DNA of 64,000 bases, taken from positions 149,091 to 213,090 of the forward strand of contig NMRA01000415.1 of the NCBI GenBank assembly GCA_002633005.1, written 5' to 3'. A program made the position numbers and the translations under genes. The DNA is from Phoronis australis. Taxonomy: Eukaryota; Animalia; Phoronida. Within the stretch, counting starts at the first letter, position 1. Every line of letters begins with the position of its first letter. The notes under the pieces are model-generated. The model was not told the origin of the DNA and ran no database searches. It saw only the letters and a program-made list of their open reading frames with translations. Shown piece after piece: positions 7,901 through 63,139 of the stretch.

Positions 7901-10890
7901 ACTTTTTATTTTTCATGTGATGCACAGGTCCTTTTCACAATGTTCCATAAGTTAAGATGTTTGCCGAAAAAAGCAAATGAACTTCATTCATAGGTCAGAT
8001 GACGGGCCCGAAATGGAGCATTCGAATTAAAATGACGAGCGTTGGTACTAAAATATATTAAAATATCCACGTATCGAGCGATGCGCTCTTTCTCAAGGGT
8101 GTGCTACAAACTGCTGAAAATATGTGGATAGATCTAAAATAAAATGACACAGGGGACCACATAGTGACATACAATAAACGTGAACATTCTGAACACAACA
8201 GGACATAGCAACTACCAGTGGGGTAGGGAGAGAGGGAGAGAGAGAGAGATACCCAAACAGAGACATATGCAGCTACTGGAGTCTATTCACTAGACTTGTA
8301 GACTCCAGTAGCTGCGTACGTCTCTGTTTGGATCTCTCTCTCTCTTTCGTCATACGTAGGCCTACCCCACTGATAGTTGCTACCACTTAGCCGACCCAAG
8401 TGCCGACCACAGAGGCGACTCAGCAGACGGCTCCTAGCCGACCGTTGTTGGTCGGCTGCTGGTAGGCTAGACGACCGGTCGACGGCCGGTCGTCGACCAA
8501 TTTTCGTGATGTGTGCTGTATGTCCTGTTGTGTTCACATTGTTCACATTTATTGTATGTCACTATGTGATCCCCTGTGCCATTTTATTTTAGATCTATCC
8601 ACGTTTTCAACAGTCTGTAGCACATCCTTGAGAAAGTGGGCATCGCTTGATACGTGGGGATATTTTAATATATTTTAGTACCAACGCTCGTCATTTTAGT
8701 TCTGGTAGTTTTACTTTTTTGTGAGCCTTATTTGAATGTATGTCAGAGAATAGTAGTTATTTCAGATTCAACATGCTGAAGATACTTCAAAAGTACGGAG
8801 CACTCAAAAGACTGGACTTTCTGTACAACAGAGTTGGCCCTGATAAAGGCAAACCCCGTGGCTATTGTTTTGTAACCTACACCTGTAAGGAGGATGCAGA
8901 GAGGGCCAAGAAAGCTTTGAATGGCAAGGTTGGTTTTGTGGATGTATTATTTTCTGTGCTGGTGGTAATTTATGCACGAGGTCATCCAAACCAGAGGATG
9001 TTAGACTACGTTTCTCACGCAACAACACGTGAGTGAAGGTCAAGTATGCTGGATACTTCACTAACGCAATCTAGTGCCAAAATGATAGCTACTGAAATGA
9101 TTGGTAGGTGAGGTTGGAATGTTGATTTATGGGGTAGACTTCATGATTTATGGGATAAACTTCATGAATTATGGGATAGCATTTATTGTTTCGATGATGA
9201 ACATTTTTTGTCGCAAGTGCAAGGTGGCGGTGAAACTTGAGATTTTGAATTGAGGACTGTTGTGGTGACCCCTTAACTACATTTTACATCTTGTGTAAAA
9301 GGATACCAAACACAGTTTTGGCCTATTATACATACTAAAAATGACTTTCCCATCCAGTTCTTTGAAGTAAATTAATGCTCTGTACCCTCGACAATCCTCA
9401 AAAGTTTGGAGGAAAATTTGAAAGTTCCCTTTGAAGTCTGCTAAAGTTGCAAGCGTGACCTACGCTTATAGCGAATTACACGGCAACTGTGGGGAAAGAC
9501 CATAACGTCCAATCTGTGACACAGGGAGTATAAGTTTTTCATTGATTCCCACCCTAAACTTAGAAGATTAATGCCAACGATGCACCACCAGGTGGCAGAA
9601 CAAAGATTGCTCGAAATCATCAAAACGAGATTTAGTATCCTTTAAAGCTGAAGTTAGCCTTACAAGGTTTACTTTTTTCAAGGTGGTTCTGTCCAAGAGG
9701 TTATTTGTCAAGGAGGCCCACATCCAGACTGAGGTAAGTTTAATACCTGTACTATGATGCAAAACATCGGTGCCTAGTATACACGTATGTTAGTCTTTAA
9801 ACTCAAAGCTACAAGGTGAAGCACCAGTGCTTTTCCTTCACTTCTAACTGTTGCAGCTACCTTGTGTCATCGCATTCTTGTCTTCTCGTACCTTACATGA
9901 AGCTAGAAACATATCGTTTTCACTGCACTGTAGGTCGGTGTATATCAACACTTTGCAGTGATCATGTTCCTTAAAGCCACACTCCCCAGACTTTTCCATG
10001 CCTTACAAAAATAATCGCACATAATAGTTATGAGATGAAAAGAGCATCATGTCTGTTCCCTATTCCCAGCTCTTAACGTCAACTCGGTACACTAATATTG
10101 GATGAGCTGTTGATGTCAGACACAAAGCAAGCTAAGGGAAGTCCAGTTCGCAGTGTCTTGCTGCAGCCATCACTAACACTAATTCCTGACCTATTCAGCA
10201 TACGATATGGCGGACGAGTGAAATTTTATTTTGTCAATTTTTTTCTGAAAAAAAAGATTAAGAACATTTCGGTTTGTTGCGGACTTGGTTTTAAGTTGTT
10301 GTCATAAAACAATAATTGGTAAAGTCTCCATTATGTGCAGCATGGTAATAAGCTTTGAAACACGGGAACAGGGATATTTTAGGCATTATATTTATGGAAA
10401 GTACGTGGAGAATTTCCATACTAGTCAAAGCTGTTGTCTGTACATGACGTCATGTGGCCCGAATCTTCTAGGTTGTCTATTTATAGCACATGCTGTTGGT
10501 AAGGTGTCGTGTTTATCTAAGGTTTATCTATCTTGTTTGTGACTTCTCATTTAAGGATATTTAACCTTGATGGTACTCCTTTAAAACTGGTAATGTACTG
10601 ATATATAATTGTATGTACTAATAACATTAGAAATCGTTATTTAGGGACCTGTAAAACAGGAAATAAAACCTGCGTCATGCTCTGTCAGTGCAGAGGACAA
10701 GATCAAAGCAATAGAAGCCAAACTGAAGAGTATGGAGAAGTCGAAAGAGGAATTTTCTATTGCTCAACAGAATCTCCCTGTGGTGGTTAGGCAGAGAGAG
10801 ACACCTGGTGCACATAGGCAGAACTCTGACAGAGTGACATCTGGTAGACACTCAGGACATCATCCATATAAAAAGGCTGTGGATAGGTGA
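4952..10890 (+). CDS. RBM18: RNA-binding protein 18 (single RRM), about 192 aa, 5 coding exons
   Basis: Exons 4952-4966 (MTSTL, tentative), 6125-6228 (RLWVGNMDTRVTE, RNP2), 8766-8928 (FNMLKILQKYG...KPRGYCFVTY, RNP1), 9683-9733 (VVLSKRLFVKEAH), 10645-10890 (EDKIKAIEAKLKSM...HPY..stop). All introns are GT-AG with compatible phases. The motifs match RBM18 as recalled (RLWIGNLD, PRGYCFV, KIKAIEAKLK). Confidence 0.9.
6512..7081. mobile_element. MITE (570 bp) in an RBM18 intron
   Basis: About 40-bp TIRs GGGCTGTTCCAGCAAAATCTGTGTGGGAGGGGGGAAGGCA / TGCCTTCCCCCCCTCCCAAACAGATTTTACTGGAACAGCCC, flanked by TTA and TAA (TA duplicated). No ORF. Confidence 0.85.
8024..8702. repeat. Long palindrome (about 260-bp arms) with a 136-bp TA-flanked insertion in the right arm
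   Basis: Left arm 8024-8285 is the reverse complement of 8299-8382 plus 8521-8702, with scattered mismatches. The GC-rich insert 8383-8518 lies between duplicated TA. Confidence 0.9.
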
Positions 10891-15891: not shown

Positions 15892-15959
15892 GAGACAGTT
15901 ATGACCAGTTCGTACTCTTGACTGTGGAACGGTCTGTTTCCTTCGAGGTAAATCTCGAC

Positions 15960-16724
15960 ATGGAGATACATTTTCGTCTCCTCGTCTTGGTGCTAAGCGC
16001 TCTGCTATCGATTGGCGTCGACGCAGCCAATGCCAAGTCAAAACCGTCGTCTTCGTTTAAGGAGTCCCAAATAGCGTTGAACAAATATCACGATTATATT
16101 TTTGAACAGTTGAATGACAGTACCTCAAAACTGACCTTTGTGGAGAACAAGATCAAAGAATTAGAATCTTTGTTTGAAGACAGGATTACGAAGCTGGAAA
16201 CTAAGCTGAAAGCTAGCTTGACTAGGCAGATTTCAAGAACACCGCACATGGAAGACCTGGAAATGAAAGTAAACGAGCTGAAGTCGCGAACCAGAAACGT
16301 AGCTTACGAATCGTGGTACAGCTACGTTGAAAAGAGCCCCGACTCTGCGAATATGGACATCATCAAAAATATGAAGTTTAATAAGAAGGAAAAGAGCAGT
16401 GACTTGAAGATCGAGTTTTACACAAATTTTGGCTTGGAAGGAGTACAATACAACTGTGATCGAATGTGCACCAAGTATCAAGTCCTTGTCAACGGGCAGA
16501 ATTGTGCAAGTCCAATCGACGCTACTATTTTTATGGAGACAGCTAAAAGCAACACGGAGTTTATAATTCCGTCTACGATGGTTGGAATTTGTCACGGAAT
16601 TCCCAGTGGCGCAGTCGCTATACAAATACGCACTACAAAGTGTGAAGAGGCCCGTTTCGCACTACACACCATTACCGGATGGCGCATGAATTCCAGAATA
16701 ATTGTGGAGGAACTCTTCAATTAA
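15960..16724 (+). CDS. Secreted protein (254 aa): signal peptide, coiled coil, CTHRC1-type C-terminal domain
   Basis: Intact single-exon ORF. Signal peptide MEIHFRLLVLVLSALLSIGVDA; heptad region LTFVENKIKELESLFEDRITKLETKL; C-terminal motifs FNKKEKSSDLKI, NGQNCASPIDA, GICHGIPSG and TGWRMNSRIIVEEL parallel the CTHRC1 C-terminus (NGAECSGPLPIEA, GLCEGI, TGWNSVSRIIIEEL). Confidence 0.85.
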   Translation: MEIHFRLLVLVLSALLSIGVDAANAKSKPSSSFKESQIALNKYHDYIFEQLNDSTSKLTFVENKIKELESLFEDRITKLETKLKASLTRQISRTPHMEDLEMKVNELKSRTRNVAYESWYSYVEKSPDSANMDIIKNMKFNKKEKSSDLKIEFYTNFGLEGVQYNCDRMCTKYQVLVNGQNCASPIDATIFMETAKSNTEFIIPSTMVGICHGIPSGAVAIQIRTTKCEEARFALHTITGWRMNSRIIVEELFN

Positions 16725-19024: not shown

Positions 19025-19351
19025 AGGTATCAGTAACCCTTTGAAGCCGGGGAGATAATTGGCCTGCTTCTTGTCGTACGAGACAAAAGACTGCGCTGGC
19101 CAGTTAACAAAGGAGCCAGATGTTATCTTGCGTTCAGAACCCCTCACGTCTGGAAAAGTTGCTGTAGGCTTACGACAGAACGCCGTCATGTAAGAAGACT
19201 GTGATACCCGCAGTATTAACTGGGCGGCCTTTCAACAATTGTTCGATAAGCCTGCTTAGCCTATGTCTGGGGGTGACTTCCCTGGCTACTGGCTACTGGC
19301 GTGGGTTAGCTACCGAAGAATAACTTGAAACGACCACCGAGAAGTGGTGAT

Positions 19352-20600
19352 CTAGAAATTGAAAGATATTGAATTAATTTTGAGAAATTGGTCCAAAAGA
19401 ATTTTGACGCCATTCGAGAGGATTACAGTAATCAAGGCGCTAGCGGTTTTAAAAATTGCAAATCTTCTGATATCCTTGCCACAACCTTCGAAACATATTC
19501 GAGAAAAACTGAACTTAGTGTACGTTTTTAAATTCCTCTGGCAAGGTCGCAGTGACAAGATTACGAGCGCTCCCGAGCTGTTTGTAATTATAATGAAGGA
19601 GGTATCAGAAGGATTAACATATTTTCATTCTGTAAGGCTTTAAAGATTAACATGTTAACAAAATTTGTAAACGGTCAGTCAGGCTGCCTGTTTGTTTCAT
19701 TTGATTTTTCCTGAATTTAGAAATTTCGCAAAGCATGGAGTTGACTTTCCAAAGATAAAGTTGCCTAATATTGACAATCACTTCTGGAAAGATTTTTTTT
19801 GAATGTGTAATCTCCTTTGGATATTGTTTGAAGATCAAAAATCAGATAATTTTCTTAACCAACTTTTTATGGTTTACATGTAGCAGTGATCTACAGGCAG
19901 GAGCAAAAAGCATTTTCTACAGGAACTGGTGCAATAGAAGCATTATTAGATAGTCTTTATAAAGGACTTGTTTTCCCCATACGGTAATATTTTGAACTAT
20001 AGACCTATTGTGGATGTTTTAGATATCAAAATGAACTTTATGGAGTACATGCCCTGATAGTCTAATTTCCGTGATATTTAAGTACAAACAGAAATGTGCT
20101 ACTGATAGAGTTGTTAGTTTTGATGCGTATTGTCCTGTTATGCCAACGATTTTAATGAAACTGAAAAGTGGTGGGAGAGGGTGTCAACATATCTGTACAC
20201 AATTGAATTACAGTTCCGAAGTCTCAAAAGCGGAGTCATAATGGGCCAACGAACTGAAAGTAAACACAACTAATTTTTCACGGGAAGATGTTTAACACGT
20301 ACAACAAGAGATCCACGAATTAGGTGGCTTCGGCTCTTGACGAGAATTTTGACTACTAACTCATTTTCAAAAATAATTCAAGTTACGGATGACGACTCTT
20401 GTTCCTTTTGTGGACAATCGAAAGAGACTTTGAAACACTTAGTATTCAATTAGTAGGCTATTGGTCCGTCAAACAGTTGGACAAAAGTTAATAACGAAAT
20501 TCTACTAAGCAAATCCCCAGTGTGTCGGCACTCTATTCTGCAACAACGTTATTTTTGGCTTTTTTGATAAAAAAGAAAAATTTAAACACATTGTTTTATT
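19352..20600 (+). mobile_element. Degenerate L1/Tx1-like LINE 3' fragment
   Basis: Translation LRNWSKRILTPFERITVIKALA..LLISLP (post-RT region of L1/Tx1 ORF2) and zinc knuckle CSFCGQSKETLKHL, with many frameshifts and stops. Confidence 0.75.
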
Positions 20601-20824
20601 ATTCGGGGTAAACAGTTTATGATACCCAAAAGGCGGGGGGCGGGGGCGAGGGGACGGAGAGACCCGAAGGCGCCGCAGAGCAAACCGTTATGCCAAAGCA
20701 TAGGGAGGATTCGTGGTGATCAGGCGATACATATATAGATCAAGAAACATGTATAATAAATTGTTAGCATATAGAAATGTCTATCCCGTCCTGATGAGAC
20801 AACGTGGTACTGCCTGGGTGATTT
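19485..20824 (+). repeat. 1.34-kb direct duplication, copy 1
   Basis: Near-identical to 28144-29481 (scattered substitutions and small indels). Similarity ends after GCCTGGGTGATTT. Confidence 0.95.
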
Positions 20825-21579
20825 CTGGGAGTAATATACATAGGGAGTGGAAACTTCAAGCCCAACTTTCATCGCTATTGTACTATGACTGCCTCGCTAT
20901 TCAAGCTCACAGAGCGAAATAATCGTATTTACTTAGTGCCCGAACCACAGTTCAGCGCATGTCAACACTGTCAGGCATGCGCACTTAATCAACAACATTG
21001 GCAGCCATTTTTAAAAACACGCCCTTTCACGGCATTAGAATCCTTGTGATTCTTGTCGGTGTTGTTATTGAGAATTTGACGATGTTAAAGTTCTGTCATT
21101 AATTGTAAATGCATTGATTGTACTAATTAGAGCACGTAGAATACAACTGACTTGAAATTGTACTTCGTTGTTGTTTTTTTATCTGTTAAAAATCGCCTTA
21201 AAATGGGTCAGTGATGAGCGTTTTTTACTTTCGTGGGCATAAAATCTAGTTTTACTGCGACTTGGGGTCTCAAAATGTTAATCATACGGGAAATTGGTTC
21301 TTTCATCCGTAAAATATCTGATATATACGTTTAGAATTATAGGAGACGTATTTTTCCGAGTTTCGCCGCAGCGTAGTCTTGTTTTGTCGTGTAATTCCTG
21401 CAATTATTTGGCGCAGCACCGGTGGTTTCTTCTACGTCGGCGTTTTTCATTTATAAGCCAATTGGAATATACGTTGTATTCAGAAGTCTTTTCTTTCACT
21501 TTGCTGATTTTTACTGGTTTCTTTTACTTTACTGCATTTTAAAAGCACATTACATCTGTTGTGAGTTAAGAAGTGAATT

Positions 21580-23104
21580 ATGAACAAACACGACGACTTC
21601 GTGAACTGGAGTGACGTAGATTTAGACGCACTGTTGGGCGATTATACTGCGGAGGAGGAAAGCGATGATGAGCCCGATTTCTCAGGGTACGAAATCTCGA
21701 AAAAGAGAAAAGAACCTAGCACTTTGCCTGCTGATGAAACTGCAACATCCACTACCTTCGTTGGTGCTAGTGCCGATGGCAACAAATTTGATTGTCCTCT
21801 GTGTGACAAAAACTATTCTTCCGTCAGTGGGTTTCGTGGACACGTTATTAAGAAGCATCAGCGACCGGATTTGAAAGGTAAATGAATATTGATTGTGAAA
21901 ATGTCGACTTTGGAGTGTTAGGATTTTAGTTGGGAAAATAAGTAGGGAAAATAATCATATCTTACGACAGTGATGCCTTGGGGCCACTGAGTGTAACACA
22001 CGTAGCTTCTAAGTTAGTACCTCTTTGACTTTTCATGATCCATGTCAATTTAAGTGTCAATGTACATTCTCAGGCTCAGTCATGTGGTGTACTTTGCCCC
22101 ATTAATGTATTCATTTTACATTTGCAGCACACAACAACCGAAGACATTCGCTTGGGAAAGAAAATGTTGAACCAGCCATTCCTCGTGAAAATTTTACGGA
22201 GACAGTTGCGCATGCTATACAAATATCATTATGCAAGATTGTGGACTGTCCCTTTAGAAATAGTCCAGCCTCGGTTCATGGGAAAGAGATTGTCCTCATC
22301 GCCAAACAAGTTCAGCTCGAAGGTCAAGACATCAATGCGAAGTTTCAGAATTTAATTTCGAAATTTGCTGCCTTGCTGTCCTCAGCGTTATGTGGGGTAA
22401 CAGTTGAAGGAGATTTTGAGCAGTTAATGCTGGGGTTTCATGATCTGAGGCATGATCCTGGTTTTCTCACTGATATTGGTGTAAACTCGAAGTATGAACA
22501 ACAATTTACCCAAGTGTTCCTGTTCCAGTTATTGGAGGACGTCATTGCGCTTTTGAAGAAAAACACGCAAGAAAAGAACAAGACACACACTGATGCATTG
22601 ACTGAAGATGACAATCTTGTCCTGTGTTACATTGCTGGTTACATGTTAAGAGTATCACCACAAAAGGCACCAAAACACATGAGGGAGGACATGACGTCAC
22701 TTTGTGAGTATCTCACATGCAAAGACATTGAGAAAGAGTATCCACACACTGAATGGATCAGGCGAGTTAGCAGAGGAGGATTAAAGACTCCGTCACTCGA
22801 TTGTTTTCATTTGATTCAATGTTATGAGGTTGTGGCGCGATCCATGGTCGACACTTCTAATCTCAAGAAAACGTCAATGAACATAAACTGTCTTACAGAA
22901 ACTATATTGTGCGATGCAGCTGTGAAAAATCTGTGGGAGAAGCTGGGTAAGGCTGTGATTCTTAACGAAGTGTTAATCAAGATTTTTTTGACTGTTAGAG
23001 GATTCGCTGTTACCAAACTGTTGAGAAAGAAGAACAACAAGAGAGGAGTGTCATCACAAGGTGGTAATTCTTTCCGTAAATCTCTGAAGGAAATGAATTC
23101 CTAA
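21580..23104 (+). CDS. 424-aa two-exon protein: acidic N-terminus, C2H2 zinc finger, P-element transposase C-terminal-domain homologue
   Basis: Exons 21580-21877 (AAAG|GTAAAT) and 22128-23104 (TTTGCAG|CA) join in frame through a phase-1 intron with no stop. C2H2: FDCPLCDKNYSSVSGFRGHVIKKH. CTD motifs: LTEDDNLVLCYIAGYMLR, EWIRRVSRGGLKTPS, IFLTVRGF. Confidence 0.85.
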
Positions 23105-23933
23105 TTGTGACCGAACATTTTCATTTCCTTTTTCTGATGCCAGATTTTGTTGACTACGTTTGTGTAAATACTGTATAGGCTTGTGACTGCAATACATTGT
23201 GTAACTGAATATTCTTTTCATGTTGAGAACGTCAGAAAAATATTTTCGCAACATAAAAACAATGCGACACGCTGGGGTCTAATTCTCGAAGGGACTTGCC
23301 TCTAGCCAGACCTATTTGAAACTTGGTAATTTTACTTGAGACAAACAAATGTGCAATCAAGTCACATTTTGCTTCCATTTTTAGGAGTGGATGTTCAGGC
23401 TTCGTCAAGAATCTTCGAGAAAAACCCATGTAGCTATTCTTTTCTTCGCTTTCATTTTCACTCTAAAATTCAAAGTTAATACTACAGAGAACAATACTTT
23501 ATTACCTACTAAAACAACAACAACCAAATGCTTGAGTACATCTACAGAGACTGCAGACAAAGTTCGCAACTAAATTATCATGTTATATTTAAGTGTAATG
23601 AATCAAGGGGCTGACATACCACAATTTCCAAATAACATGTAGCGATTTATAAATACTTTTTCTTTCAAAAATTGTTGCTATTCTAGGCACAATTACAGAC
23701 TTCAACTCAATTAAAAAAGAAAGATCACTGAATAACCCACATAGAAAAGCAATCACCAATTTCCGAAATCTTGCAAACTTCACTAAGGAATACACGACAA
23801 TAGAATACAAAAATGCAATATTCCCACAGAAGTTTTCAAAGAAAATTCAGTACAAAAACATTTCCAAAAACAACAGTGTAATCACCCTACACATTCATGG
23901 TTTGTGTAAAATAGCATTACCAAGTCTCATAGA

Positions 23934-26570
23934 CTAATGCCTTCTAGGTAGAGGGGTGTCATCAATGGCTGGACAAGAATCCGGACCTACTTGAACATTA
24001 CCTCGCCTATTTAAAGCCAACTCTCCTACTGTTCTAAGTTCAGTCATGATTTGCTGCACTTGACGAACTGTTGGGTTGTCGTTTGCCCCACCTTTGTGGC
24101 GATAATGCCCAAAGTGTTGCTCCAAGGGGTCCTGATTAAAAGCAGAGGTTAATACAAATGGGGCACCACTGTTCAACAAAAACACAGTCAATTCACAAAT
24201 GGATCGAACACTTAACTCTATACCCTCCAGAGTTTGATTACTCAGAAGCATTTTTGCTTTTTCAGCCTTGCTTAGACCAGGAACATTATTTACTGTTTCA
24301 CGCCACTGTCGAAAGTAACCAAGACAATCGTTCAATAGCCACCTTAACCTGTCATCATTCACACTTCTATATGCATCAACCTGTGGGTTGCGACTCCTGA
24401 CACCTTCATCTAAATTTTTCGTGTTCAGACAGTCAAATAACTTATTCATTATAGAGATAAATTGCACGGTTTTACTAACTTCTGCACCATAGTAAAATTC
24501 TAACGCCTTGGCAACAGTGGCACTCAAAATCTGAGCAGCTAAATTCACCTTCATTCTGGAAAAGGGTGTGAGATACACATGAGTTCTGGTTAACTTGGGG
24601 CATAACGTATACAGATTATTTTCACAGTGCTCTTCAAAGAGCCTAACAATATGACGCCATGTTATTTCTTGCCCATTCCACAAGTTTCTTGATCTGATAT
24701 GGCCACCTGAATTGCTGAAACAGTTGCGAGAAGTTTTCAGCAGGTGAGGTGGGTCTGATATGAAATATAGAAAATAATGATCAGGAGACACGGGATTTAA
24801 ACATTTGTAAATAACTCTATCAAGGTGATGATCAGCCCTAACCCTATGTAAATGAAAAAATTTCCTGTTGGGAGAGGCCCCATCACATGTTATAAATATC
24901 ACCCGAAGGTCAAGGTCAACTTCCAATACCTCTATGGCCTTCCATATTATAGGGTATAAAAAGTAGCTAGAAATCCCATCAGTGGCATAATTAGCTAAAG
25001 GAAACTTCAAGCCAGAAGTGGCACCCCTAACCATAACAACGAGAACATAGCGAGCAACAGTAGCTGCCTGATTTTTTAGTGTGTCCCTAAGCTCCTGCAG
25101 TTGATTTCCTACACTATCAAGGTCCACATATCCTATTAACTCCCCACTATGTTTGTCGTAAACCAGGTCATCCTGTACCTTAACCTCATCTTGTAAAATT
25201 CCGACAAACCGCTTATGAGGCACGTCATAACACCCCTGTTTCTTACACGCATTCTTTAAAAGGCCAAGCACGTCGGGTAGTATTCCACACCCACTTACAG
25301 TAAAATGACTGTAATCATATAAGGTGCGCGAACACGGCAGAGAAATAAATCCACTCGACCTCATGGCTTCATAAGCCTTACTCGACTTGGAACGCAAGTA
25401 CAAACACCAGCGTACTATCATGGGGTGCCAACGCATCCCCTTACCCTTATTGGTCTTATTGTACTTAACTTGCTGCTCCCAAAACAGCCGCTGAAAGCTA
25501 TCGTTTTCCGGGAAGGCAGACTCCACCTCGCCCTGGTGGTCACTAACCATACTAAACAATTGAAAACTGTCAGTCTCAGGTAAAACTAAACCCTGAACTT
25601 GAATCAAAGCATCTATCTGCTTTCGCAAACTCTCCACTTCATGATGTAACTGAGTTCGTATTTTCTTGCTTTCGGCAAGTTTTTGCTTAAGTTCTTTTGG
25701 TGTCATATAGCTCTCCCTTTTTCGACTTGAGATTAAGCCCTCTGACGGAGCATTACGACTTCCAGTAGTACACCTAGAGAGGGATTTGCGCAGAGTGGCA
25801 CTATACAGCCTACACCTAGAACATCTTTGGCCTTGCCAGACAAGAAGTTCACAAGCTACATGTCTAATTGTTGATTGACAATTATACATTTCCCGATAGG
25901 CCTGAATTGACGGTGCCTCACTACCTGATATACCACACCCAACAGGAACTAAGAACTGGAAGTCCTCCCTATCGTTACCACGACACACCTCAAACATAGA
26001 CAATCTATTGAGTAACCTACTTATATCACGGACAGACTTATATAATTTGGGTAAGCCAGTCCAAAAATCACTAGAACCAGGCAACATTTTTGTGTGAACA
26101 TTCACATGTGCAGAAAAATCTCTATGTATAGTCACTGAGACGTTCACAGAGGGGTTGATACTTTCAATCAGACTGACATACTGTATACAACTATACTTCG
26201 AGTAGTAAAAATAGCCCTCTGGTGGCTCAAGGTTTTTCACACACTCTCTCAGTTTTTCATAAGCGGAGTCCTTGTACAAAACATCAGTGTCTGTGTCTGG
26301 ACTTACGAGAACTGGGCCACTGTCCAAGATTACATAAAACTCGTCTGCATGATGACCATCAAGGTCCATCTTTTCTTCATGGACGTACCCACTGCCAACA
26401 TCATTGAAATTGGGAATTTCCCAAAACGATGAACCAACTGAAGGATGTGGCAACTGTTCGGGTGGCAGACTCACACATGAATACGGATGTTCAGCATGTC
26501 TCGTGACCACTCTTCCTTTTTTTCTCCTTACTGCGATGCCAAACTTTTTACGTTTTGGCGGTTTTGGCAT
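23934..26570 (-). CDS. P-element/THAP9-family transposase (about 878 aa), lacking THAP and C-terminal domains
   Basis: Uninterrupted ORF. ATG at 26570 lies just after the acceptor TGTGTTTCAG (the ORF-track start at 26612 is TTG). Motifs: WHPMIVRWCLYL..SSKAYEAMR..LPCSRTL (HTH), ILQDEVKV (D1), ITCDGASPN (D2), SDPPHLLK (DxxH), RMKVNLAAQILS (GTP-binding insertion), NQDPLEQHFG (E), GGANDNP. Confidence 0.95.
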   Translation of the reverse strand: MPKPPKRKKFGIAVRRKKGRVVTRHAEHPYSCVSLPPEQLPHPSVGSSFWEIPNFNDVGSGYVHEEKMDLDGHHADEFYVILDSGPVLVSPDTDTDVLYKDSAYEKLRECVKNLEPPEGYFYYSKYSCIQYVSLIESINPSVNVSVTIHRDFSAHVNVHTKMLPGSSDFWTGLPKLYKSVRDISRLLNRLSMFEVCRGNDREDFQFLVPVGCGISGSEAPSIQAYREMYNCQSTIRHVACELLVWQGQRCSRCRLYSATLRKSLSRCTTGSRNAPSEGLISSRKRESYMTPKELKQKLAESKKIRTQLHHEVESLRKQIDALIQVQGLVLPETDSFQLFSMVSDHQGEVESAFPENDSFQRLFWEQQVKYNKTNKGKGMRWHPMIVRWCLYLRSKSSKAYEAMRSSGFISLPCSRTLYDYSHFTVSGCGILPDVLGLLKNACKKQGCYDVPHKRFVGILQDEVKVQDDLVYDKHSGELIGYVDLDSVGNQLQELRDTLKNQAATVARYVLVVMVRGATSGLKFPLANYATDGISSYFLYPIIWKAIEVLEVDLDLRVIFITCDGASPNRKFFHLHRVRADHHLDRVIYKCLNPVSPDHYFLYFISDPPHLLKTSRNCFSNSGGHIRSRNLWNGQEITWRHIVRLFEEHCENNLYTLCPKLTRTHVYLTPFSRMKVNLAAQILSATVAKALEFYYGAEVSKTVQFISIMNKLFDCLNTKNLDEGVRSRNPQVDAYRSVNDDRLRWLLNDCLGYFRQWRETVNNVPGLSKAEKAKMLLSNQTLEGIELSVRSICELTVFLLNSGAPFVLTSAFNQDPLEQHFGHYRHKGGANDNPTVRQVQQIMTELRTVGELALNRRGNVQVGPDSCPAIDDTPLPRRH

Positions 26571-28143
26571 CTTCTGAAACACAGAATGTTGCAATATGTG
26601 AAGTCTCTTCAAAATATTGATCTTTATGTCAAACAGTCACTTTTACATAACTTTTCAATACTTAAAAGTAGACCCATAAAACTATACATTTTGAAATCCT
26701 TGAGGATCCTCAGGGATTTGAAAAATATACATTTTGTGGGTCTATTATCAGGGCTCGATGCTATAAAAATCAGTCCCGGGTAATATCATCAAGGCCTAGG
26801 ATCTTTCATAACCGCCGGGAATCTATTTAGATCTTTTACGATAAAGAACGAGATGCACAATTCCAAGTCACGGTCGTCTGCCGGGAGTGTGGCTTGTGCG
26901 CTAACAACGGCACCGACCAGTGCCGCAGAGCAACATGAGGGATTTTGTCGTGGATATTTGATAATAAGGACATCTTACTTGAAAAATAAATTTATTTTCC
27001 ATCACAAAGTTTGTCAAGTTTGATTGTCTAGGACTTAGTAGAAACACCTGTCCTTTTATCAAACATTATGCTGTGGTCCGAAACTCTCTTCGGCACAGCC
27101 AGAAATTTGCAAAAGTAGCCAAAAATGAAATGCGTTGAAGATCAATTCTGCAGTATCCCATGTTCACGCGACATGCTTATAAGTCATCAGGTGGGCTTTT
27201 CTTGGTTAATGTTCTTTTGAATTTGATTTGGCAACAACCAAATAATGGTCGGATTCATGCAAGTTACTATATACCTGCCAAGAAGTGTATGTTGGAAATT
27301 CTAGGTTGCATTTTACAACTTGATACGACATGGCAAAATCTCAGCTTGAATTTCCAAATTTCAGATCGCAAATGCGACCAGCTGGTCATTATGTCAAGTC
27401 CTGATTATTAATAATTGAAGTTATACAAGAAATTGGATCCTTATTAATGAACATAGGCAGTAACTTTAAGGACATTCACAACTGACAGTAAAATCAAACC
27501 GCTCAGAATGGAGGTGATTGAATAAAGCTGCAACAATAAAGCCAAGAAAAACTTACCTTATTAAGCCCAAGTCAAACAGAACCTTAGTTTCCCCAATTTT
27601 CCCCACTTCTTGAGAGCTAAAGTATTTTGATTCTGAAACAAATATTTAAATTCAGAACAATAATATACAGTTTGGTTTGCAGCAGCTAGCAGCTGACCTA
27701 CATTCGAATTACAATAAAGTCGACAATAGAGTAACAGTCAGCACTTGGTGGTCTGTGACCAGCGGCAGATGTAGGCGGCCATCTTGGATTTCAATCACAT
27801 TATTTCCTTAAACTTTTTTGAAGTTTTTATCAACTAATTAAGATTTTTTGTGATAAAACGGCTCCGTCACACCAAAATATCAATATCACTTTAACTGAAA
27901 TTGCATAAATATGACACTCAACAACGCAAACGAATTTCTGAATAATGTTACAAAATTCACGATTTCCGTGTTGATACAGACGCAGTTAAGGCATTTACAA
28001 TCAATTCCAATATTACGCGCATTTTTTATCTTCGTTTGTAGGAAAAAAACGAAAACAATAAAAAAATGGACTTCGTCACACAGTAAAACAAAGTCAACTG
28101 TTCACGATATTGGTTATTTCAATNNNNNNNNNNNNNNNNNNNN

Positions 28144-29481
28144 CCTTCGAAACATATTCTAGAAAAACTGAACTTAGTGTACGTTTTTAAATTCCTCTGG
28201 CAAGGTCGCAGTGACAAGATTACGAGCGCTCCCGAGCTGTTTGTAATTATAATGAAGGAGGTATCAGAAGGATTAACATATTTTCATTCTGTCAGGCTTT
28301 AAAGATTAACATGTTAACAAAATTTGTAAACGGTCAGTCAGGCTGCCTGTTTGTTTCATTTGATTTTTCCTGAATTTAGAAATTTCGCAAAGCATGGAGT
28401 TGACTTTCCCAAGATAAAGTTGCCCATTGACAATCACTTCTGGAAAGATTTTTTTTGAATGTGTAATCTCCTTTGGAAATTGTTTGAAGATCAAAAATCA
28501 GATAGATTTTCTTAACCAACCTTTATGGTTTAGCAGTGATCTACAGGCAGGATCAAAAAGTATTTTCTACAGGAACTAATGCAATAGAGGCATAGTCTTT
28601 ATAAAGGACTTGTTTTCCCCATACGGTAACATTTTGAACTATAGATCTATTGTGGATGTTTTAGGTATCAAAATGAACTTTATGGAGTACATGCCCTGAT
28701 AGTCTAATTTCAGTGATATTTAAGTACAAACAGAAATGTGCTACTGATAGAGTTGTTAGTTTTGATGCGTATTGTCCTGTTATGCCTACGATTTTAATGA
28801 AACTGAAAAGTGGTGAGAGAGGGTGTCAACATACCTGTACACAATTAAATTATAGTTCCGAAGTTTCAAAAGCGGAGTCACAATGGACCAACGAACTGAA
28901 AGTAAACACAACTAATTTTTCACGGGAAGAGTGTTTAACACGAACAACAAGAGACCCACGAATTAGGTGGCTTCGGTTCTTGATGAGAATTTTGACTACT
29001 AACTCATTTTCAAAAATAATTCAAGTTACGGATGACCACTCTTGTTCCTTTTGTGGACAATCGAAAGAGACTTTGAAACACTTAGTATTCAAATAGTAGG
29101 CAATTGGGCCGTCAAACAGTTGGACAAAAGTTAATAACGAAATTCTAAACAAATTAAGCAAATCCCCAGTGTGTCGGCACTCTATTCTGCAACAACGTTA
29201 TTTTTGGCTTTTTTGATAAAAAAGAAAAATTTAAAAACATTGTTTTATTATTCGGGGTAAACAGTTTATGATACCCAAAAGGCGGGGGGGTGCGAGGGGA
29301 GAGACCCGAAGGCGCCTTTAATTGTCCGAGAGCAAACCGTTATGCCAAAGCATAGGGCTCGGAGGATTCGTGGTGATCAGGCGATACATATATAGATCAA
29401 GAAACATGTATAATAAATTGTTAGCATATAGAAATGTCTATCCCGTCCTGATGAGACAACGTGGTACTGCCTGGGTGATTT
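28144..29481 (+). repeat. 1.34-kb direct duplication, copy 2 (degenerate LINE plus sequence upstream of PPT2)
   Basis: Near-identical to 19485-20824 and starts right at the edge of the N-gap. Confidence 0.95.
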
Positions 29482-29605
29482 GCACCAGCTGGCCCCGCGT
29501 GGCAGGAAATCATCGCGTTATCTGCTGACCTGATGTTCTTTTGTTGCTCCGTTGTGGCGGAAGCTGACCAACCTTTGACCTCACTTGTTGACTTATTTAG
29601 ACACA

Positions 29606-32600
29606 ATGTGGTCGACACGAAAACCCAGACCTTTCTCATTGTTTCTCAGTGTTTTCCTTACATTTTGCGCTCTTGATCCGACTTCTGGGTACAAACCAGT
29701 TATCTACATGCATGGAATTCTAGCATCAGGACATAAAGAAGGAAACCCGTTTACAGATATGGTTGTACAGGTACTTCATTAAATTTGTTTCTCACTACTG
29801 ATAGCGAACAGTTTCACACAGTCACAGGTGATGATGGTTTACCGTATAGGTTCTAAGATACTAAGCTGCTGGAGTTTTATGAATATCCTTCCTCCAACTG
29901 AAGTGGGTTGCTCTATCTGACCCCAGTAGACTGCTTGGAGCAGCTAGAGACGGCGGTTACTGTCTACTCTGAACGATGAACTCAGTAAACGAGGTGTCTC
30001 CAGTAGGCCTAGGCCAAGGGTTATTCTTGGTAAGTTAGAGTTAGAGTGACCAATCACCAATGTCTTCTAGTCTAGGTAGCCCAGGCATTAGAGGTGGTAT
30101 AGTTGCTATAGGAGCTTCATACGCGTGAGGTTTTCAGCGAAGTATGCCTCACACTGACACATAGGGGGACACCTGGCTTAATTAGGAGGCCGTCGATGTC
30201 TTTAATTCCTTCCAGCTCGCACAAATACTCCTGTTATCAAACTTTTTCTTCAAGCAGTCCTTCGTTCAGTTCCTAAAATCTATATCTTGCCATTTTTAAC
30301 AGGTGGTGTGACGTCATACCACCTGGTGGCCACTGCTTGGGTAATCACTCACCCCCAACTTAAGTTTTGCCAATTTTCGGTTTAAGCGCCCGCTGCTTGG
30401 GTAATCGTCCACCCCCTGTCTCAGGGTTTCCGAATTTAAGCACCCAGGGCATTAATCCACGAGTTTACGGTATGTTCTCTCTACAACGGAAAATTCAGAC
30501 TTGATGGGAATCATAAATTCATGGACATATAATTGGTATTAAGTCCTTATTCATGCCATGAAGGATTAATTGTAAAGTCATGAAACGTATGACTACTGAA
30601 CTCACCAGCAGACACTAGGTGCCAAACTATTTGGAGCACCGAGTTTTTCAATAGCCCTGAATTTCCCCTCGAAGGTTATTGTTATCTGCTTGGGAGTCGA
30701 CTTCAGGTACAACAAGTCATGTGACTTTCAAACTGGAGAGTGCATTGGCTGTGTGACTGTATTGAATTTCACACGAATGCACATGAAGTTTATCTCCGAG
30801 GCCCAAAATTTCAAGCTAAAGGAAAATATATGAGGTGTGATCTGAATGGTGTTGAAGCGGTTTTTCAAATCTACAAGATCAAACTCGTTTTCAAATTGAG
30901 TTTTCAAAAATATGGCGGGTGGGCTGAACTCAATGGTTACAACCAAAATTTAAACTCGTTACTGTGACGACAGGCTGTAGAGAGTACTGCATGTTTCTAA
31001 CTTGAGCTCCAAATCCCAGTTTGAATTGGTACATGGTAATTTTCCACTTACCACAGAAATTTTTTTGCCAAATTGTCATTCCTTTCTAGTTTTCAAAGTC
31101 CAATTACTTTGCTGAAAATGATTGGAAACCTTGCCAATTGTTAATAATTTTATGGCATGTACACGACACAGTACAAAACATGGTGAAACATGCTGCCTTT
31201 ACTACAAATTTGTTACCTTTATTTTTATGGAGACATTTGAATCTCACTTGTGATCTTTATCACTGGTAATTGCGTGCTGACTGATACTTCCGGCTTTGAC
31301 TGTCTACTGTATTGTGTTTGTGGTGCACTTCTGAAAATGAAACCATCAATAGATGATCTAAACTGGAACAAGGAAGTTTGAAGAAAGTATACAGTGTAGT
31401 TATTCATCCAGGAGGGGTTGCTCAGTTTTCATCAGGGATTAGGGATTCCTACGTTTTTTATGTTTAATATCCTTTAAAACAAAGTGGTCGTTATATGCAA
31501 TCCTGAGGCTATGAAGTGGACACAGTACAATCCGAGATTTAAATAAGCTATCATCCCGTCATGGTGCGTGGAAGATTTCTATGCATAATAGGTACCTTTT
31601 GCTTAAACTGAAACTATTTTAGTGAATTTCTGAGACGCCTTAATAGGAATTTCAGAGGTTTGTTGCGTTCAGGCATTTCGACCGTTCTGAAGAAGTTAAG
31701 TGGCTATTCTTGGGCAGTCTGCTTTGATCGCTGGTTTCTTGCGTGCCGCTAGGTGGTCAGTAGTCAGCAAGCAGGTTAATTTTCCTCAGGAAATTTTTTT
31801 ACACTGGCATTTCTGATTGGCTAGTCGAATTCTCAACAGGCAGCGCTTTACGCAAACAAACTGGCATGACTGATGGACTGAAGAGTAAATGTGGTCAAGA
31901 GTAAATGTGGTCTGTTGTACAGACAAATCGGTGCATAAAATTTATGTTCAGGAAATGTGAATCCTAGAAATTGTGGTTGCGCCTTTTCGGAGTGCATCTT
32001 TCTACTTTTGTTGATGATACTGTCCTGTATTCATTCAGTGTGAATAACACACGGGTCAAATCGGCGAGATATGTGTTAATTGTGCATATATGTGCTTCAA
32101 GCACGCGGCTATTAAACATTACTGCAGAAACAAAATAGTTGCTGCAACGCCACTTGCATGACAGGGCTGAAAATCGTTCACACTCCGCCATTTTCTCATG
32201 GTGCTTTAAGCTAACCAATGACTGCTGAGGTTACATCAACCAATGCTAAAGCGCGTGCCACTGCGTGATACCTGGTGCTGGCTAGGCACGTAGGGAACCA
32301 GTGAGTCTGCTTTGGTGAAACTGCATTATGGGAAGTTGAATCGTTCAGCCGCTATGTTCTTTTTTTTAAATTTATTTTCATTTCATTCATCCTGGTACGT
32401 TGATGGACACTCTAATTGTAGCCGCACTAGCCAGTAAGATATTTCCTGTCTGCATTATGTACCTATAAAAGTCACAAGGAGTCTTTGTATCAAATTTCTT
32501 AACTTTACAAGTCATAATGTTGGCTTGTGTGACTATAATAACTAGTGTCAACAGTTTGTTCTTGGAGTAGTAAGCTCTGTTGCTTGCGCTTGTGGGGTAC

Positions 32601-35600: not shown

Positions 35601-38600
35601 AACGATGCCAGCAGTCTCGAATCTATCGCGAAACAGGTAGTGAAGATCATCCCTCTTATGCAAGAGGTAATGAAGGCCAGCAAAGATGGCGTCCATCTAG
35701 TCTGTTTTTCACAAGGTAAAGAGATATTTTGTCTCGATTTAGTTTTCATTATTACCGTACCAGCCTTGTAATTTGGGAGCTTCAAAAACGGGCTGGGATT
35801 GTACCGGGGTAGGCTCATATTCGTTGAATGCGTAAACCCGTGATCTGGTATCACGCTTCTTTCATTATTGCATGGGGTGCTAAAATTCAATCACGCAAGG
35901 CCTACAGGTTTCTAAAACATGCATGGATTAACGCATGAATTTGAGTATAAACTGCAAAACAGCTGAAATGGTTAGTTACAGTCTCCATGCAGTGTTGTGC
36001 AAATTGCTTTGTGTACACCTTATTATTTACCAAATAAAAATAGGGGTGGACTTACACTGAATAGGTGCTCGAAAATAAAAACTCAAAAGAGGATGGTCTT
36101 ATTTCCAAGTGGTGCAGTGAATTTTGTATTGACAAATGCACCAAACTCTAAACTTGTCATTGTTCTTAAAAGTGAAATTTCTTAGAATTCAGAGATTAAA
36201 GTTTGGTCCAAATAGCATTAGTTGGTCACTGGTTTGGTCTGTACCCACACTTATTTTGAGGCCTGTGCTCACCAGCCAAAAAAACCCATGCTCACTTCAG
36301 TTTCAGTCAAGGTCCCTTGCAATTAATTTGTTTGGAGATGTTTCTCTCCTCTTCTACAGGTGGCGTTATCTGCAGGGCTGTACTACAGATGATGCCAGAC
36401 CATAACGTTCACAACTTCATCGCTCTAAGTTCGCCGCTGGCTGGGCAGTTTGGGTGTAGGTATTAAAAAAATATGACAATAGTCACTTATAAGGGTTCCG
36501 GATTTTGAGAACCAGTTCTGTGCCTGCTATTCAGTGGGAAAAACTGGTTTTCAAAATCCAGAACCAGTGCAAAATTAACTTACAGTATGACCATTGTTTG
36601 ATGAGGAGTAATATTTGAGTGGTCTTTCCAGGATGTCACTATTATTGTCTGAGACAGTAAATTAAACCTTCTGTTGCTACTGATCCAGGAAGCTTGGAAA
36701 AAACATAAAATCCCACTTTCGTGGTGAGTTAGTGAAACAATTCTAATTCCCAAGGACACAAATCTTAAAGACCCATCCCTGTTTTGTCCAATCACGTTAA
36801 CTAACACAGTAGGGAAAATCTTCTTCACTATAATCGCGCATAGACTAATTAAGTTCCTTTGTTCCAACGGTTTCATAAATACATCAATACAAAAAGGATT
36901 TATGGAAAAAGAAGCAGGGTGTCTAGAACATACAGAGACTCTTTCCAGTGTACTAAATGATGCAAAGAAAAGAAATAAACCACTTTTTGTTGCTTGGATT
37001 GACCTGGCTAACACTTATGGTTCAGTATACCACAACCTCACACAGTTCACACTTGACAGGTATCATCTACCAGAGGCGATCTAACAAATAATCTACACGT
37101 ACTACGATGAATTATTTGTGCGAATACGAACTAAAGAGCGGACAACCAACTGGATACGTTACAGTATTGGCTTATTTCAGGGATGCTCTTTGTCTGTTGT
37201 ACTATTCCTCGCAGCCTTCAACATGGGCCTAGAGATGATCGACAAAGAGAAACAAAATGGTTACAAACTTAAATTTACCAAGCAAACATTCCACCAATTA
37301 GTGTATGCTGACAACCTCACTATTATTCCTCAAATGTCAATCCAGAATACAAAAATGCCCTACGTCCAATAAGAACCAATGAAATTCCTTGGGAAAACGG
37401 TATTCAAAAATCTACAAGACATGGAAATCAGGAATAAACTTGAGACAAAATTAAAAATTTTGCTGGAAATTTTAGACAAAGACAGCACTAACGGTCCAAC
37501 TAAAGCATGGATCTACAACAATGGTGTGGTTCCAAGGATTACTTGGAATTCACAGTGTATGACTTCCCAGTGAGTTTCGCTAAAAAACTTGAACATATAT
37601 GCACAAAATATCTGAAACAATGGCTTGGAATCAGTAAAATGTCAACTAACACAGTTCTCTGCAGATCCAAAGAGCTGATCTTGGTTTAGGCATGACACCG
37701 TAGCCTAAGAACCCATCTAAAGAAGATTCAAGTGGTCAAGTTTCACATCAGCAAATATGCAAACGACCCTGAATCGAGGAAACTTTATATGGGTAAAGTT
37801 AAACAATTTTTCACGTCAAAACGGTGGAATGGCATAATGGAACTTGAAAATAGAGAAATGGATATAGTTCTGAATGAAATTTGTAATTTGAGAAGTCGTA
37901 ATGACAGGAAAGGTTTGGGCTATTACACCAATAATAGGAAATTCATCAAGAACATGACAACTAAAGAACATAGAGCATCTATAACGGAACGTATAAAGGA
38001 AGTCGACGAAAATAAAGTACTCTGACTTATATCTGTATAGCTGTGCCAAATAAGGGTTATGGCTCAGATGGAATGTAGTTATGTCACTTGATGTATCTTG
38101 GAGCAAGAGTCTTATGCATGGAATCCATCTCTCTTGGCATTTAGGTTAAATGGCATACACGATGTACTTCCAACACCAGCAAATTTACATTTATGGAAAC
38201 AATCGCCTTCTGAACGTTGCAACCTCTGCAGAACAGCTAAAGGCACACTTCACCACATCCTCAACAATTGCACAGTAGCATTAAATAATGGTCGCTACAC
38301 TTGGCGACAAGACCAAGTCCTAGCAATAATATTTGATGCTATCAATGAAGTAGTTCAAAACCCTCCGAAGCCTGTAACTGAAACAGCAGATTTAAGTCAA
38401 AGAACGGTTTGTACTTCGGCAATAACAGAACAGAGCCGAAATTCAGAGAACAGGCCCACTTCCTGGCCAAGACCAACAATTGGAAACTAATTAAAGATTG
38501 TACAGAAATGCCTCTTATATTCCCATCTGAAATAACAGATTTGGCATTAAGACCTGACACTGTGCTGTGGTCGATTCAGGCAAAAAGAGCAATTTAAAGA

Positions 38601-56739: not shown

Positions 56740-56764
56740 TGACGTCAAGGTATTGATGACGTCA
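56740..56764. promoter_or_regulatory. Two perfect CRE palindromes just upstream of the long acidic ORF
   Basis: TGACGTCA at 56740-56747 and 56757-56764; ATG at 56781. Confidence 0.45.
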
Positions 56765-56780
56765 TTATTCATATTTGAAT

Positions 56781-61870: not shown

Positions 61871-63137
61871 CTACCCGGGAATGCGGTCATGAGCAAGAGT
61901 GGCAAATTCATTTAAGGTAGTACATTGTCTCATTACTGATGGCAATGAGTTCCACAGCAAAGTATCTTTATGGGAGATTGAGTTACATCCGTAAGTCATC
62001 GTATTAAAGCGTTTCACATAGAGACAGTTTTCAACTCTGAGACCGTATCCAGACTCTCTAAATTCAAGCTTTCCTGACAAAGGACAGGGTCCAATAATAT
62101 GAACATTTTTAAATACTTCAATAGATAAACATTTCATCCACCAACTAGTTAGAGAGCAGCTCCTAGCCTTAACTAAGAGTTGTGAGTAGCTGGACTCGCT
62201 GACATTGAACACAAATTTTAAAGCACGGTGTTGTATCTTTTCCATTTTCCTACTTTTCTGTATTCCACATAGGTGCCAAACGAGGGGGCAGTGATTAAAG
62301 TAGGTTCTTATAAATGCATAATATAAGCTTACTGTTAATGCCTAAAACATTTCGAAGACGGAACAAGGCATTCATCTGTCTAGAAGCTTTTTCGCAAATA
62401 ACATCAACGTGCTCATGGAATTTTAACTGGCTGTCAAGTTGGACACCCAGCAGCTTAACGGACTCTTCACACTTAATCATAGTATCACCAGACATGAGAT
62501 ACCTATCATTATTTTGTACACGATTCCTAGAAAAGATGATTGACTTAAATTTACCAAGGTTTACAGCCATTCCATTAGAGGAGAACCAATCCATTGCCAT
62601 TTGCCCAGATACCTTGAGGCTGAGGCGAACTGCAGATAAAGAGGAGCCTGCTTGCAACAGGGTATTGTCATCAGCGTAATTATATAACTTACAGTGACCA
62701 CTTATAGCGTAAAATATATCATTGATAAAAATGTTGAATAACATGGGGCCTAAGACAGACCCTTGAGGAACGCCCTTGGGGACATTTAACCAGTCACTGA
62801 CAGTGGAGCCAATTTTCACTCTCATCCTTCTATCATTGAGATAGGATATTATGAGGTTACAGGTATTCAATGTGCAGCCATAGGCTTTTAGTTTGGCAAC
62901 AAGGAGCTCATAGGGTAGGCAATCAAAAGCCTTAGACAGATCAATTAGTATGCACCCAGCAAATAAATTATTGTCCAGAGCTAACCTTACATCTTCAGTT
63001 CGGCGCAACAAGACATCCTGGCAAGAAAAACCTTTACGGAAAGCACATAAATTTTCATTTAAAATTTCATCAAAATGTGCTTTCAATTGGTCTAGAATAA
63101 GTCGTTCAAAAACTTGGTTGACACCAACTGGTCTATA
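61871..63137 (-). mobile_element. Degenerate CR1/L2-group LINE reverse transcriptase fragment
   Basis: YRPVGV..FERLI, IDLSKAFDCL, KGVPQGSVLGPMLF, YADDNTL, KLLGVQLD, EKIQHRALK; frameshift near 62295. Confidence 0.9.
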
Positions 63138-63139
63138 AC

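Follow-up and report, generated by a model that had tools for sequence, protein, structure and literature searches.

Our analysis of a 64,000-nucleotide stretch of the Phoronis australis contig NMRA01000415.1 (the window) identified a P-superfamily transposase whose C-terminal domain (CTD) is encoded by a separate gene on the opposite strand, and this layout recurs at related loci. With a probability of roughly 0.58, we regard these elements as a two-gene P lineage in which the separate CTD protein likely docks on the transposase–DNA complex and acts as a positive accessory that raises the efficiency or fidelity of integration. The features of the window are the following:

20825..20858, plus strand: left element end with a CTGGG-type TIR and the internal family motif GGGAnTGGAAA, recognized by TIR pattern match
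21580..21877, plus strand: partner exon 1, ATG at 21580, with an acidic DFVNWSDVDLDALLGDYT motif and a C2H2 zinc finger
21878..22127, plus strand: predicted partner intron, 250 nt, GT..AG, phase 1
22128..23104, plus strand: partner exon 2, with a helical N-terminal extension, the homologue of the P-transposase CTD, and a basic SFRxxL tail
23105..23933, no strand: spacer of 829 nt that separates the two stops and contains both 3' UTRs
23934..26570, minus strand: P-superfamily transposase without CTD and THAP, 878 aa, D/D/DxxH/E intact
26574..27556, minus strand: intron in the 5' UTR of the transposase, 983 nt, GT..AG, spliced in RNA
27557..27633, minus strand: non-coding exon of the transposase mRNA (9 reads of RNA run X7 with a loose end behind 27634)
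28124..28143, no strand: N gap of the assembly, candidate site of the right element end
28144..29481, plus strand: duplicate of the left flank 19485–20824 (93.8%) that runs on without the element

The transposase contains the complete catalytic motifs (LQDE at 459, TCDG at 561, SDPPH at 605, and QDPLE at 813), and its ORF ends 61 aa past the catalytic glutamate. A Pfam search returned TNP-like RNaseH_N, GBD, and RNaseH_C (PF21787, PF21788, PF21789) above the gathering cut-offs, with no match to Tnp_P_element_C or THAP (PF05485), and among PDB entries chain A of 6P5A was matched with E 9e-15 in an alignment that stops at chain residue 553. The CTD motifs Y[ILVM][ASCT]G[YFW] and GGLxxP are absent from the 878-aa protein and from all minus-strand frames downstream of it, up to window position 1. 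These data confirm that the minus-strand ORF is a P-superfamily transposase without CTD: it has the split RNase H, the GTP-binding insertion, and the DxxH of a P-type DDE enzyme, and it has neither the CTD within the core polypeptide nor the N-terminal THAP domain of the canonical P/THAP9 type. The gene is transcribed (depth about 25–35 in X7), and splicing of its RNA was seen only within the 5' UTR, where the joint 26573–27557 is covered by 2 reads of X5 and 4 reads of X7 and is also present in contigs of X1–X3. A further upstream exon, a motif of which is absent from the window, joins 27557..27633, and the spliced exon upstream of the transposase contains an in-frame stop. The 5' UTR intron also harbors a high-copy host repeat near 27140–27390. 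Beyond the stop codon of the transposase, RNA reads continue through the 3' UTR to about 23430 in X7, and no joint to a same-strand 3' CTD exon is among those listed for RNA reads and contigs.

The partner gene carries the CTD that is missing from the transposase, which is confirmed by profile and fold comparisons. A profile of the partner family matched the CTD chain of the Drosophila P transposase (6P5A_B) with E 2.8e-6, the next match having E 4.2, and 24 of the 149 members of the family match Tnp_P_element_C in Pfam with E<=0.1 (2.3e-4 for the strongest). The AlphaFold2 model of the partner (pLDDT 89) is all-helical and superposes on the P CTD with all 118 of 118 residues (VIA Z 9.1, rmsd 3.1), a Z score in the range below about 13 that can be generic for helical bundles; Foldseek gave a probability of 1.00 and a TMt of 0.74 with an E-value of only 0.26. 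The homology is detectable with the family alignment only: the single sequence found nothing significant in Pfam and PDB, a word-indexed search with it gave none among 673 candidates, and its single-sequence fold was unusable (pLDDT 39). In the exon 2 product, the helical extension spans about residues 19–155 and the CTD homologue residues 155–302, followed by a basic tail in which R316 is present in 96% of the aligned members and K and R make up 29% of the last 35 aa. A complex prediction of core residues 370–878 with partner exon 2 scored 0.00, with alignments unused and the partner fold uncertain.

If spliced, the partner product has 424 aa without internal stops, with the C2H2 finger at 72, YIAGY at 267, RGGLxxPS at 315, and FLTVRG at 386. 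Splicing itself is a prediction: the contigs of X1 and X3 cross the intron unspliced, and no joint for 21878–22127 is among the listed read joints of three RNA runs, in which cover is thin there. Homologues share the N-terminal acidic motif and the finger of exon 1, and at locus L012 the donor of the partner is likewise of phase 1 and equally placed. Partner transcripts are scarce and for the most part of the antisense strand in the three RNA runs, and the transposase is well expressed in X7. Each strand of the spacer contains a single poly(A)-signal hexamer, at about 23503 (minus) and about 23710 (plus), and therefore the 3' UTRs of both genes would overlap. A preliminary description of this DNA had claimed a fully catalytic transposase that ends about 60 aa past the glutamate without CTD motifs, and, some 830 bp away, a convergent P-CTD homologue with the YIAGY, GGLxxPS, and FLTVRG blocks, and all of this agrees with our results; its intact, spliced 424-aa partner gene holds for the ORF, and the splicing stays predicted.

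The two-gene layout is found far beyond the window. Among 120 related transposases, the catalytic-Glu motif QDxxE is present in 107, all of which end 43–77 aa after it without a CTD, and PF05485 was matched in 2 of the 120. The partner represents a stand-alone protein family with 148 matches. Loci were collected with the transposase as the query, as the partner alignment varies too much to scan for them. Of the 24 loci that extend 2 kb or more downstream, 22 have a convergent tail-to-tail partner, a count that includes several copies of one element. The loci with room but no downstream partner are L001, whose contig is cut upstream, and L070, which is decayed; at L002, the partner lies upstream and is divergent. 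The partner is under purifying selection and co-inherited with the transposase: the trees of both proteins are congruent (n=20, including 19 dereplicated pairs outside the window; Mantel rho 0.78, reached in 0 of 5000 permutations), and partner dN/dS values are 0.15, 0.11, and 0.20; of 6 pairs, 2 were saturated, and the near-identical L034/L047 gave about 0.9. The partner gene occurs in multiple, dispersed copies (4 scaffolds in Mytilus edulis, 3 in Batillaria). Accession numbers did not reveal adjacency of the two genes in named genomes: those of a Ptychodera pair differ by 424, and none matched as a pair in Mytilus or Haliotis. Relatives were absent from the 39 pattern matches in viral contigs, and the partner-alignment search for fused core and CTD forms gave 0 of 6960 candidates, which is weak evidence as only 841–2400 aa were covered.

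TIRs of about 30–40 bp enclose both genes in 10 loci, and 7-bp TSDs surround both genes in 7 of the 10 two-ended copies (none in L010, L033, and L041); in addition, a 7-bp TSD was read by eye at L081. Several of the 7-bp flanks begin with GT and end with AC. The family thus has the TIRs and the 7-/8-bp TSD of the P superfamily, and the window copy shows the left end only. This end is the sole window match to a TIR pattern derived from the termini of relatives; at 20825, loose ends of RNA reads start whose flank differs (4 reads in X5, 38 in X7), a contig of X3 begins there, and the duplicated flank diverges at the same point. The right TIR was not found within the window and is probably hidden in the N gap 28124–28143, past whose left border (28123) a contig of X1 extends by 242 nt. 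The duplicate at 28144..29481 is likely an uncollapsed empty-site allele. Linkage within shared TIRs, congruent trees, and dN/dS below 1 had all been named as checks in the preliminary description, whose 8-bp TSDs have to be corrected to 7 bp.

These data also decide on a local accident, i.e., an inversion or the chance adjacency of a transposase cut short and a host gene unrelated to it, which could be suspected as the right TIR and the TSD of the window copy are unassembled. Such an accident is refuted by the recurrence in 19 dereplicated outside pairs, the enclosure by TIRs and TSDs, the congruent trees, the 22 of 24 convergent loci, and the dispersed copies in Mytilus edulis and Batillaria, and we give it practically no credence. 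The exon of the zinc finger, which the preliminary description had also held against an accident, is optional in the partner family. An action off the catalytic complex, by chromatin targeting or transcription control of the end promoters via finger and acidic motif, appears improbable to us. The C2H2 finger and the conserved acidic-aromatic N-terminal motif of many homologues would suit this role, as would a transposase without THAP domain; however, no zinc-finger exon was found in the compact loci L026, L034, L051, L081, and L082, where the partner ATG adjoins the TIR, the CTD half is the best conserved part (mean top-residue frequency 0.42 versus 0.26 in the extension), and the CTD-less transposases P0260 and P0266 retain a THAP-like domain.

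A more serious, if still unlikely, alternative is that the partner serves, in detached form, as a negative regulator that attaches to the transpososome or to the ends of the element, dampens integration, and limits harm to the host. In HEK293 assays, fly transposase and human THAP9 retain excision and integration after deletion of their CTDs, and THAP9 integrates about 60% better without it (bioRxiv 10.64898/2026.08.31.747927); an autoinhibitory role has been proposed for the THAP9 CTD. These results fit a dispensable or inhibitory domain and argue against an obligate subunit; as CTD-less P transposases are still active, the partner would more likely be an accessory or a brake. Truncated repressors are already among the products of the P element in the fly (excerpts of PMC7776569), and the convergent, overlapping 3' UTRs could add antisense control. 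[quoted passage not shown]

Our preferred reading is the positive accessory. In the fly P structure, the CTD is attached by a flexible, disordered linker, is placed between the RNase H and the GBD of the other subunit, and contacts transposon and target DNA via a basic helix (excerpts of PMC7776569). The split point would correspond to this linker, which ties RNase H to CTD in the fly enzyme, and the partner, presumably supplied in trans as subunit or regulator, would physically rejoin the transposase. Docked on the transposase–DNA complex, it may help to hold transposon ends and target DNA, with its basic C-terminal tail contacting target DNA and its extra helical extension of about 140 residues replacing the covalent tether; it would promote integration efficiency or fidelity without being necessary for catalysis. 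Separate promoters at the two element ends could permit independent dosing of both parts. A bolder version, which we consider somewhat less likely than not, is a large, old, unrecognized split-transposase branch in which a separate DNA-binding CTD subunit switches integration on, and in which the fused fly and THAP9 forms might be derived by fusion of partner and core. The branch so conceived is spread over molluscs, annelids, hemichordates, and echinoderms.

The P element is the textbook single-gene transposon, and we found no published description of a two-gene P layout in the literature, with Repbase outside the search. P would become one more superfamily whose machinery has two components, apparently by way of fission or fusion. 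The CTD role is contested, as cryo-EM places the domain on transposon and target DNA and the 2026 preprint sees it as dispensable or inhibitory, and a natural lineage with a separate CTD gene allows a direct test of this role, in which a single gene is supplied or left out. The layout also explains a family of unannotated invertebrate "C2H2-type domain-containing" proteins, many invertebrate "THAP9" annotations would be half-systems, and a titratable second subunit could serve controllable transposon tools.

P-superfamily transposition is a GTP-dependent cut-and-paste process with 17-nt 3' overhangs. With Drosophila P (87 kDa; 6P5A/6PE2) and vertebrate THAP9, the window family shares the RNase H core, the GTP-binding insertion, D/D/DxxH/E, TIRs of about 30–40 bp, and the YIAGY and GGLxxPS blocks of the CTD. 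Unlike in these systems, its CTD lies on a separate, opposite gene that has a helical extension and, optionally, a C2H2 exon, the window transposase is THAP-less, and TSDs have 7 instead of 8 bp. Transposase and accessory gene are combined in one element in Harbinger/PIF, with a Myb protein, and in maize MuDR (mudrA/mudrB), and RAG2 has a kelch/PHD fold. Within the P superfamily, Galileo also has a 7-bp TSD, with the consensus GTANTAC, which several flanks of our family resemble in their GT...AC borders, and it differs by one THAP-bearing transposase and long TIRs, with no second gene described in the excerpts of PMC4168063. RAG1L/RAG2L transposons have two convergent genes (PMC7204232), and Kolobok0 encodes, beside its transposase, KolX with a P2X7-ballast fold (excerpts of PMC9587614). 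Identity with Kolobok0/KolX was rejected, as the transposase is P-type and the partner is all-helical and CTD-like, with no conserved Cys in exon 2, unlike KolX with its 7 conserved Cys. RAG1L/RAG2L, Kolobok0, Harbinger/PIF, and MuDR thus resemble the window family in combining transposase and accessory gene per element, but their partners have unrelated folds, whereas the partner described here is a homologue of the superfamily's own transposase domain.

The two genes at issue stand tail to tail in the window:

26570..23934, minus strand: transposase ORF of 878 aa with the motifs LQDE, TCDG, SDPPH and QDPLE
21580-21877 and 22128-23104, plus strand: exons of the partner gene, separated by a predicted 250-nt GT..AG intron and encoding 424 aa without internal stops

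Their stop codons are 829 nt apart, which agrees with the preliminary description (about 830 bp), as does the transposase itself, said there to carry D, D, DxxH and E and to end about 60 aa past the catalytic Glu without YIAGY or GGLxxPS. It ends 61 aa past this residue, and YIAGY- or RGGLxxP-like motifs are absent from all minus-strand frames downstream of it, to the window start. Pfam gave three P-type core domains, all above cut-off, and no match to THAP or Tnp_P_element_C, and the top PDB match is chain A of the Drosophila P transposase structure 6P5A (E 9e-15), a match that stops at chain residue 553.

Judged by sequence, this truncation is common to a clade and not private to the window copy. 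Among the best 120 of 362 transposase relatives (E<=1e-10), the named ones being from molluscs, hemichordates and echinoderms, 107 carry a QDxxE motif, all of which stop 43-77 aa after it and lack YIAG in their tails, in a ranking that may favour such proteins since the query itself has no C-terminal domain (CTD). A GN motif is present in 101 of these 107 and a PLxKR-like end in 81; the remaining 13 relatives are either fragmentary or carry a variant of the motif. The partner profile had no scoring match among the best 120 (best E about 0.75).

The CTD missing from the transposase had been assigned to the plus-strand gene, and profile and modelled fold both identify the partner as a P CTD. Single-sequence Pfam and PDB searches with its exon-2 product gave no significant match. 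A full HMMER search returned 148 relatives (E<=0.001) of 124-480 aa, none of transposase length, and the resulting 149-sequence profile matched 6P5A chain B, the separately modelled Drosophila CTD, with E 2.8e-6 (runner-up E 4.2); Tnp_P_element_C was matched (E<=0.1) by 24/149 family members. With the partner's AlphaFold model (pLDDT 89), Foldseek gave 6p5a_B a probability of 1.00 and a target TM of 0.74, but an E of only 0.26. VIA-align ranked this chain first of 48,161, placing model residues 155-302 onto chain residues 617-734 (rmsd 3.1, 118/118 residues) with a Z of 9.1, by itself middling for helical proteins; the structural match counts because the sequence-profile match agrees with it. 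In the partner the core of the CTD is kept, as is a conserved basic tail (SLRxxL), and model residues 19-155 form an additional helical region without clear match.

Three RNA runs were sampled, at about 18-19% of each. The transposase strand is covered (depth about 25-35 in run X7), and its single listed splice joint is a 5' UTR intron (26574-27556), so that no same-strand CTD exon is spliced onto the transposase. In contigs of runs X1-X3 this joint recurs at the depth of the coding region, from which these runs are probably RNA. The intron contains a host repeat of very high copy number at 27140-27390 (contig depth 1000-7600). Reads cover the partner at a depth of about 0-4 per strand, mainly antisense. 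Of the claim of an intact spliced 424-aa gene, the open frame stands and the splicing is a prediction: no partner splice was seen in the three runs at this cover, and the intron is retained in X1 and X3 contigs. We infer splicing because a phase-1 donor lies at the same place in locus L012 and because gene models join the zinc finger to the helical part. This finger is optional: it is present upstream in L012, L048, L060, L066 and L075, but none was found in compact elements (L026, L034, L051, L081 and L082, for example).

The two-gene architecture is observed directly in other copies, which were fetched with the transposase alone (80/157 metagenome and 3/3 genome-contig loci). A partner match occurs in 34 of these 83 loci, and none of the 57 with catalytic motif and stop codon has a YIAG tail. 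The expected tail-to-tail recurrence was found in 22/24 loci with at least 2 kb downstream (24/29 at 1.5 kb), several tail-to-tail loci being copies of a single element; of the two roomy exceptions, L070 is decayed and L001 lies on a contig that begins within the transposase. Congruent trees and dN/dS<1 had likewise been anticipated. After removal of 9 near-identical copies from 29 pairs, the trees were largely congruent (n=20, Mantel Spearman 0.78, 0/5000 permutations), and partner NG86 dN/dS was 0.15 (L026/L034), 0.11 (L026/L047) and 0.20 (L006/L021), with two pairs saturated and about 0.9 for the near-identical pair L034/L047. Further linkage support comes from protein clusters P0001 (partner) and P0154 (transposase), found on contigs of equal size (345107, 564037 and 57825 nt), and from P0010 and P0181 (512687 and 158827 nt). 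Eight of ten partner clusters looked up are named (Ptychodera, two Owenia, Mytilus, Batillaria, Haliotis, Pecten, Tegillarca), and near-identical partner copies lie on several scaffolds in Mytilus edulis (4) and Batillaria (3).

In L002 (4371-8617), the window's sister in both trees, the partner is upstream and divergent, not convergent, and gene orientation can thus change within the lineage. L012 (3179-11213) has a 4.3-kb spacer between the genes and a partner intron of about 2.3 kb whose phase matches that of the window's partner intron.

Shared TIRs with 8-bp TSDs had been predicted; the TIRs were found, and the TSDs are 7 bp. TIRs of about 30-40 bp enclose both genes in ten loci (elements of 4.5-9.7 kb), seven of which have exact TSDs (L026, L027, L028, L034, L046, L047, L082) and three none (L010, L033, L041); at L081 a 7-bp TSD was read by eye. 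One family is represented by six copies at different sites, with identities of 98.6-99.8%, and two-gene elements have therefore moved recently. TIRs start with CATAG or CTGGG and share GGGAnT(A/G)GAA. Searched with a pattern built from these ends, the window gave a single match, at 20825. RNA reads whose flank differs mark this boundary too, and here the duplicated flank (19485-20824 / 28144-29481), which would be an uncollapsed empty allele, diverges. The window element's right end is absent from the assembly (gap 28124-28143).

The element's first 245 bp or so (20825-21070) are covered more deeply, by diverged reads and contigs whose flank differs; these probably stem from non-autonomous derivatives or from other copies, some of them transcribed. 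On contigs titled prokaryotic MAGs (Nitrospirales, Nitrosopumilus), L081, L082 and L083 carry P elements of eukaryote type whose frames are fragmented, with microsatellites in L082; binning probably placed host contigs in these MAGs. In L081 there is a second element, in opposite orientation.

Other features of the window are:

6509-7084, 8024-8702, 40529-41032: MITE-like elements, inverted repeats of 45-89 nt
15894-16721, plus strand: 276-aa ORF, signal-peptide-like start and CTHRC1 C-terminal domain (E 4e-16)
19350-20700, 28144-29360: decayed LINE 3' fragment with weak zf-RVT match, present twice because the flank around the gap is duplicated
29579-29782, plus strand: short frame, no Pfam match
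38092-38487: zf-RVT fragment
56760-60872, plus strand: acidic 1371-aa ORF, built of three units of about 1.2-1.3 kb that themselves contain 33-nt (11-aa) repeats; no Pfam match above cut-off
61874-63804: two reverse-transcriptase fragments back to back on opposite strands (RVT_1 E 3e-25, 9e-24)

The short frame resembles the start of a lysosomal thioesterase, and the element may lie in or just ahead of a host gene.

As described in PMC7776569, a flexible disordered linker ties the CTD to RNase H in the fly strand-transfer complex, and the CTD has RNase H on one side and the GTP-binding domain of the second subunit on the other, touching transposon and target DNA, with a basic helix that reaches out to the target. 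Because of this placement on a flexible linker, it is plausible that a separate partner protein would supply the CTD in trans. According to a preprint, fly transposase without 567-751 still excises and integrates, as does the vertebrate relative THAP9 without 681-903, the latter up about 60% (bioRxiv 10.64898/2026.08.31.747927), which argues against an obligate role. These results support the alternative of a partner that would act as a brake on transposition, a role we consider rather unlikely. The fly CTD placement, together with the partner's CTD core and basic tail, favours the partner as a positive accessory subunit, with a probability of roughly 0.6.

The preprint confines the CTD folds to homologues of DmTNP and THAP9, and the words "stand-alone" and "standalone" are absent from it (bioRxiv 10.64898/2026.08.31.747927). 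Searches of full-text literature gave no description of a two-gene or split P element; a second ORF may be annotated in Repbase, Dfam, subscription journals or supplements. The two-gene P variant is real, conserved and mobile, and has parallels in Harbinger and MuDR.
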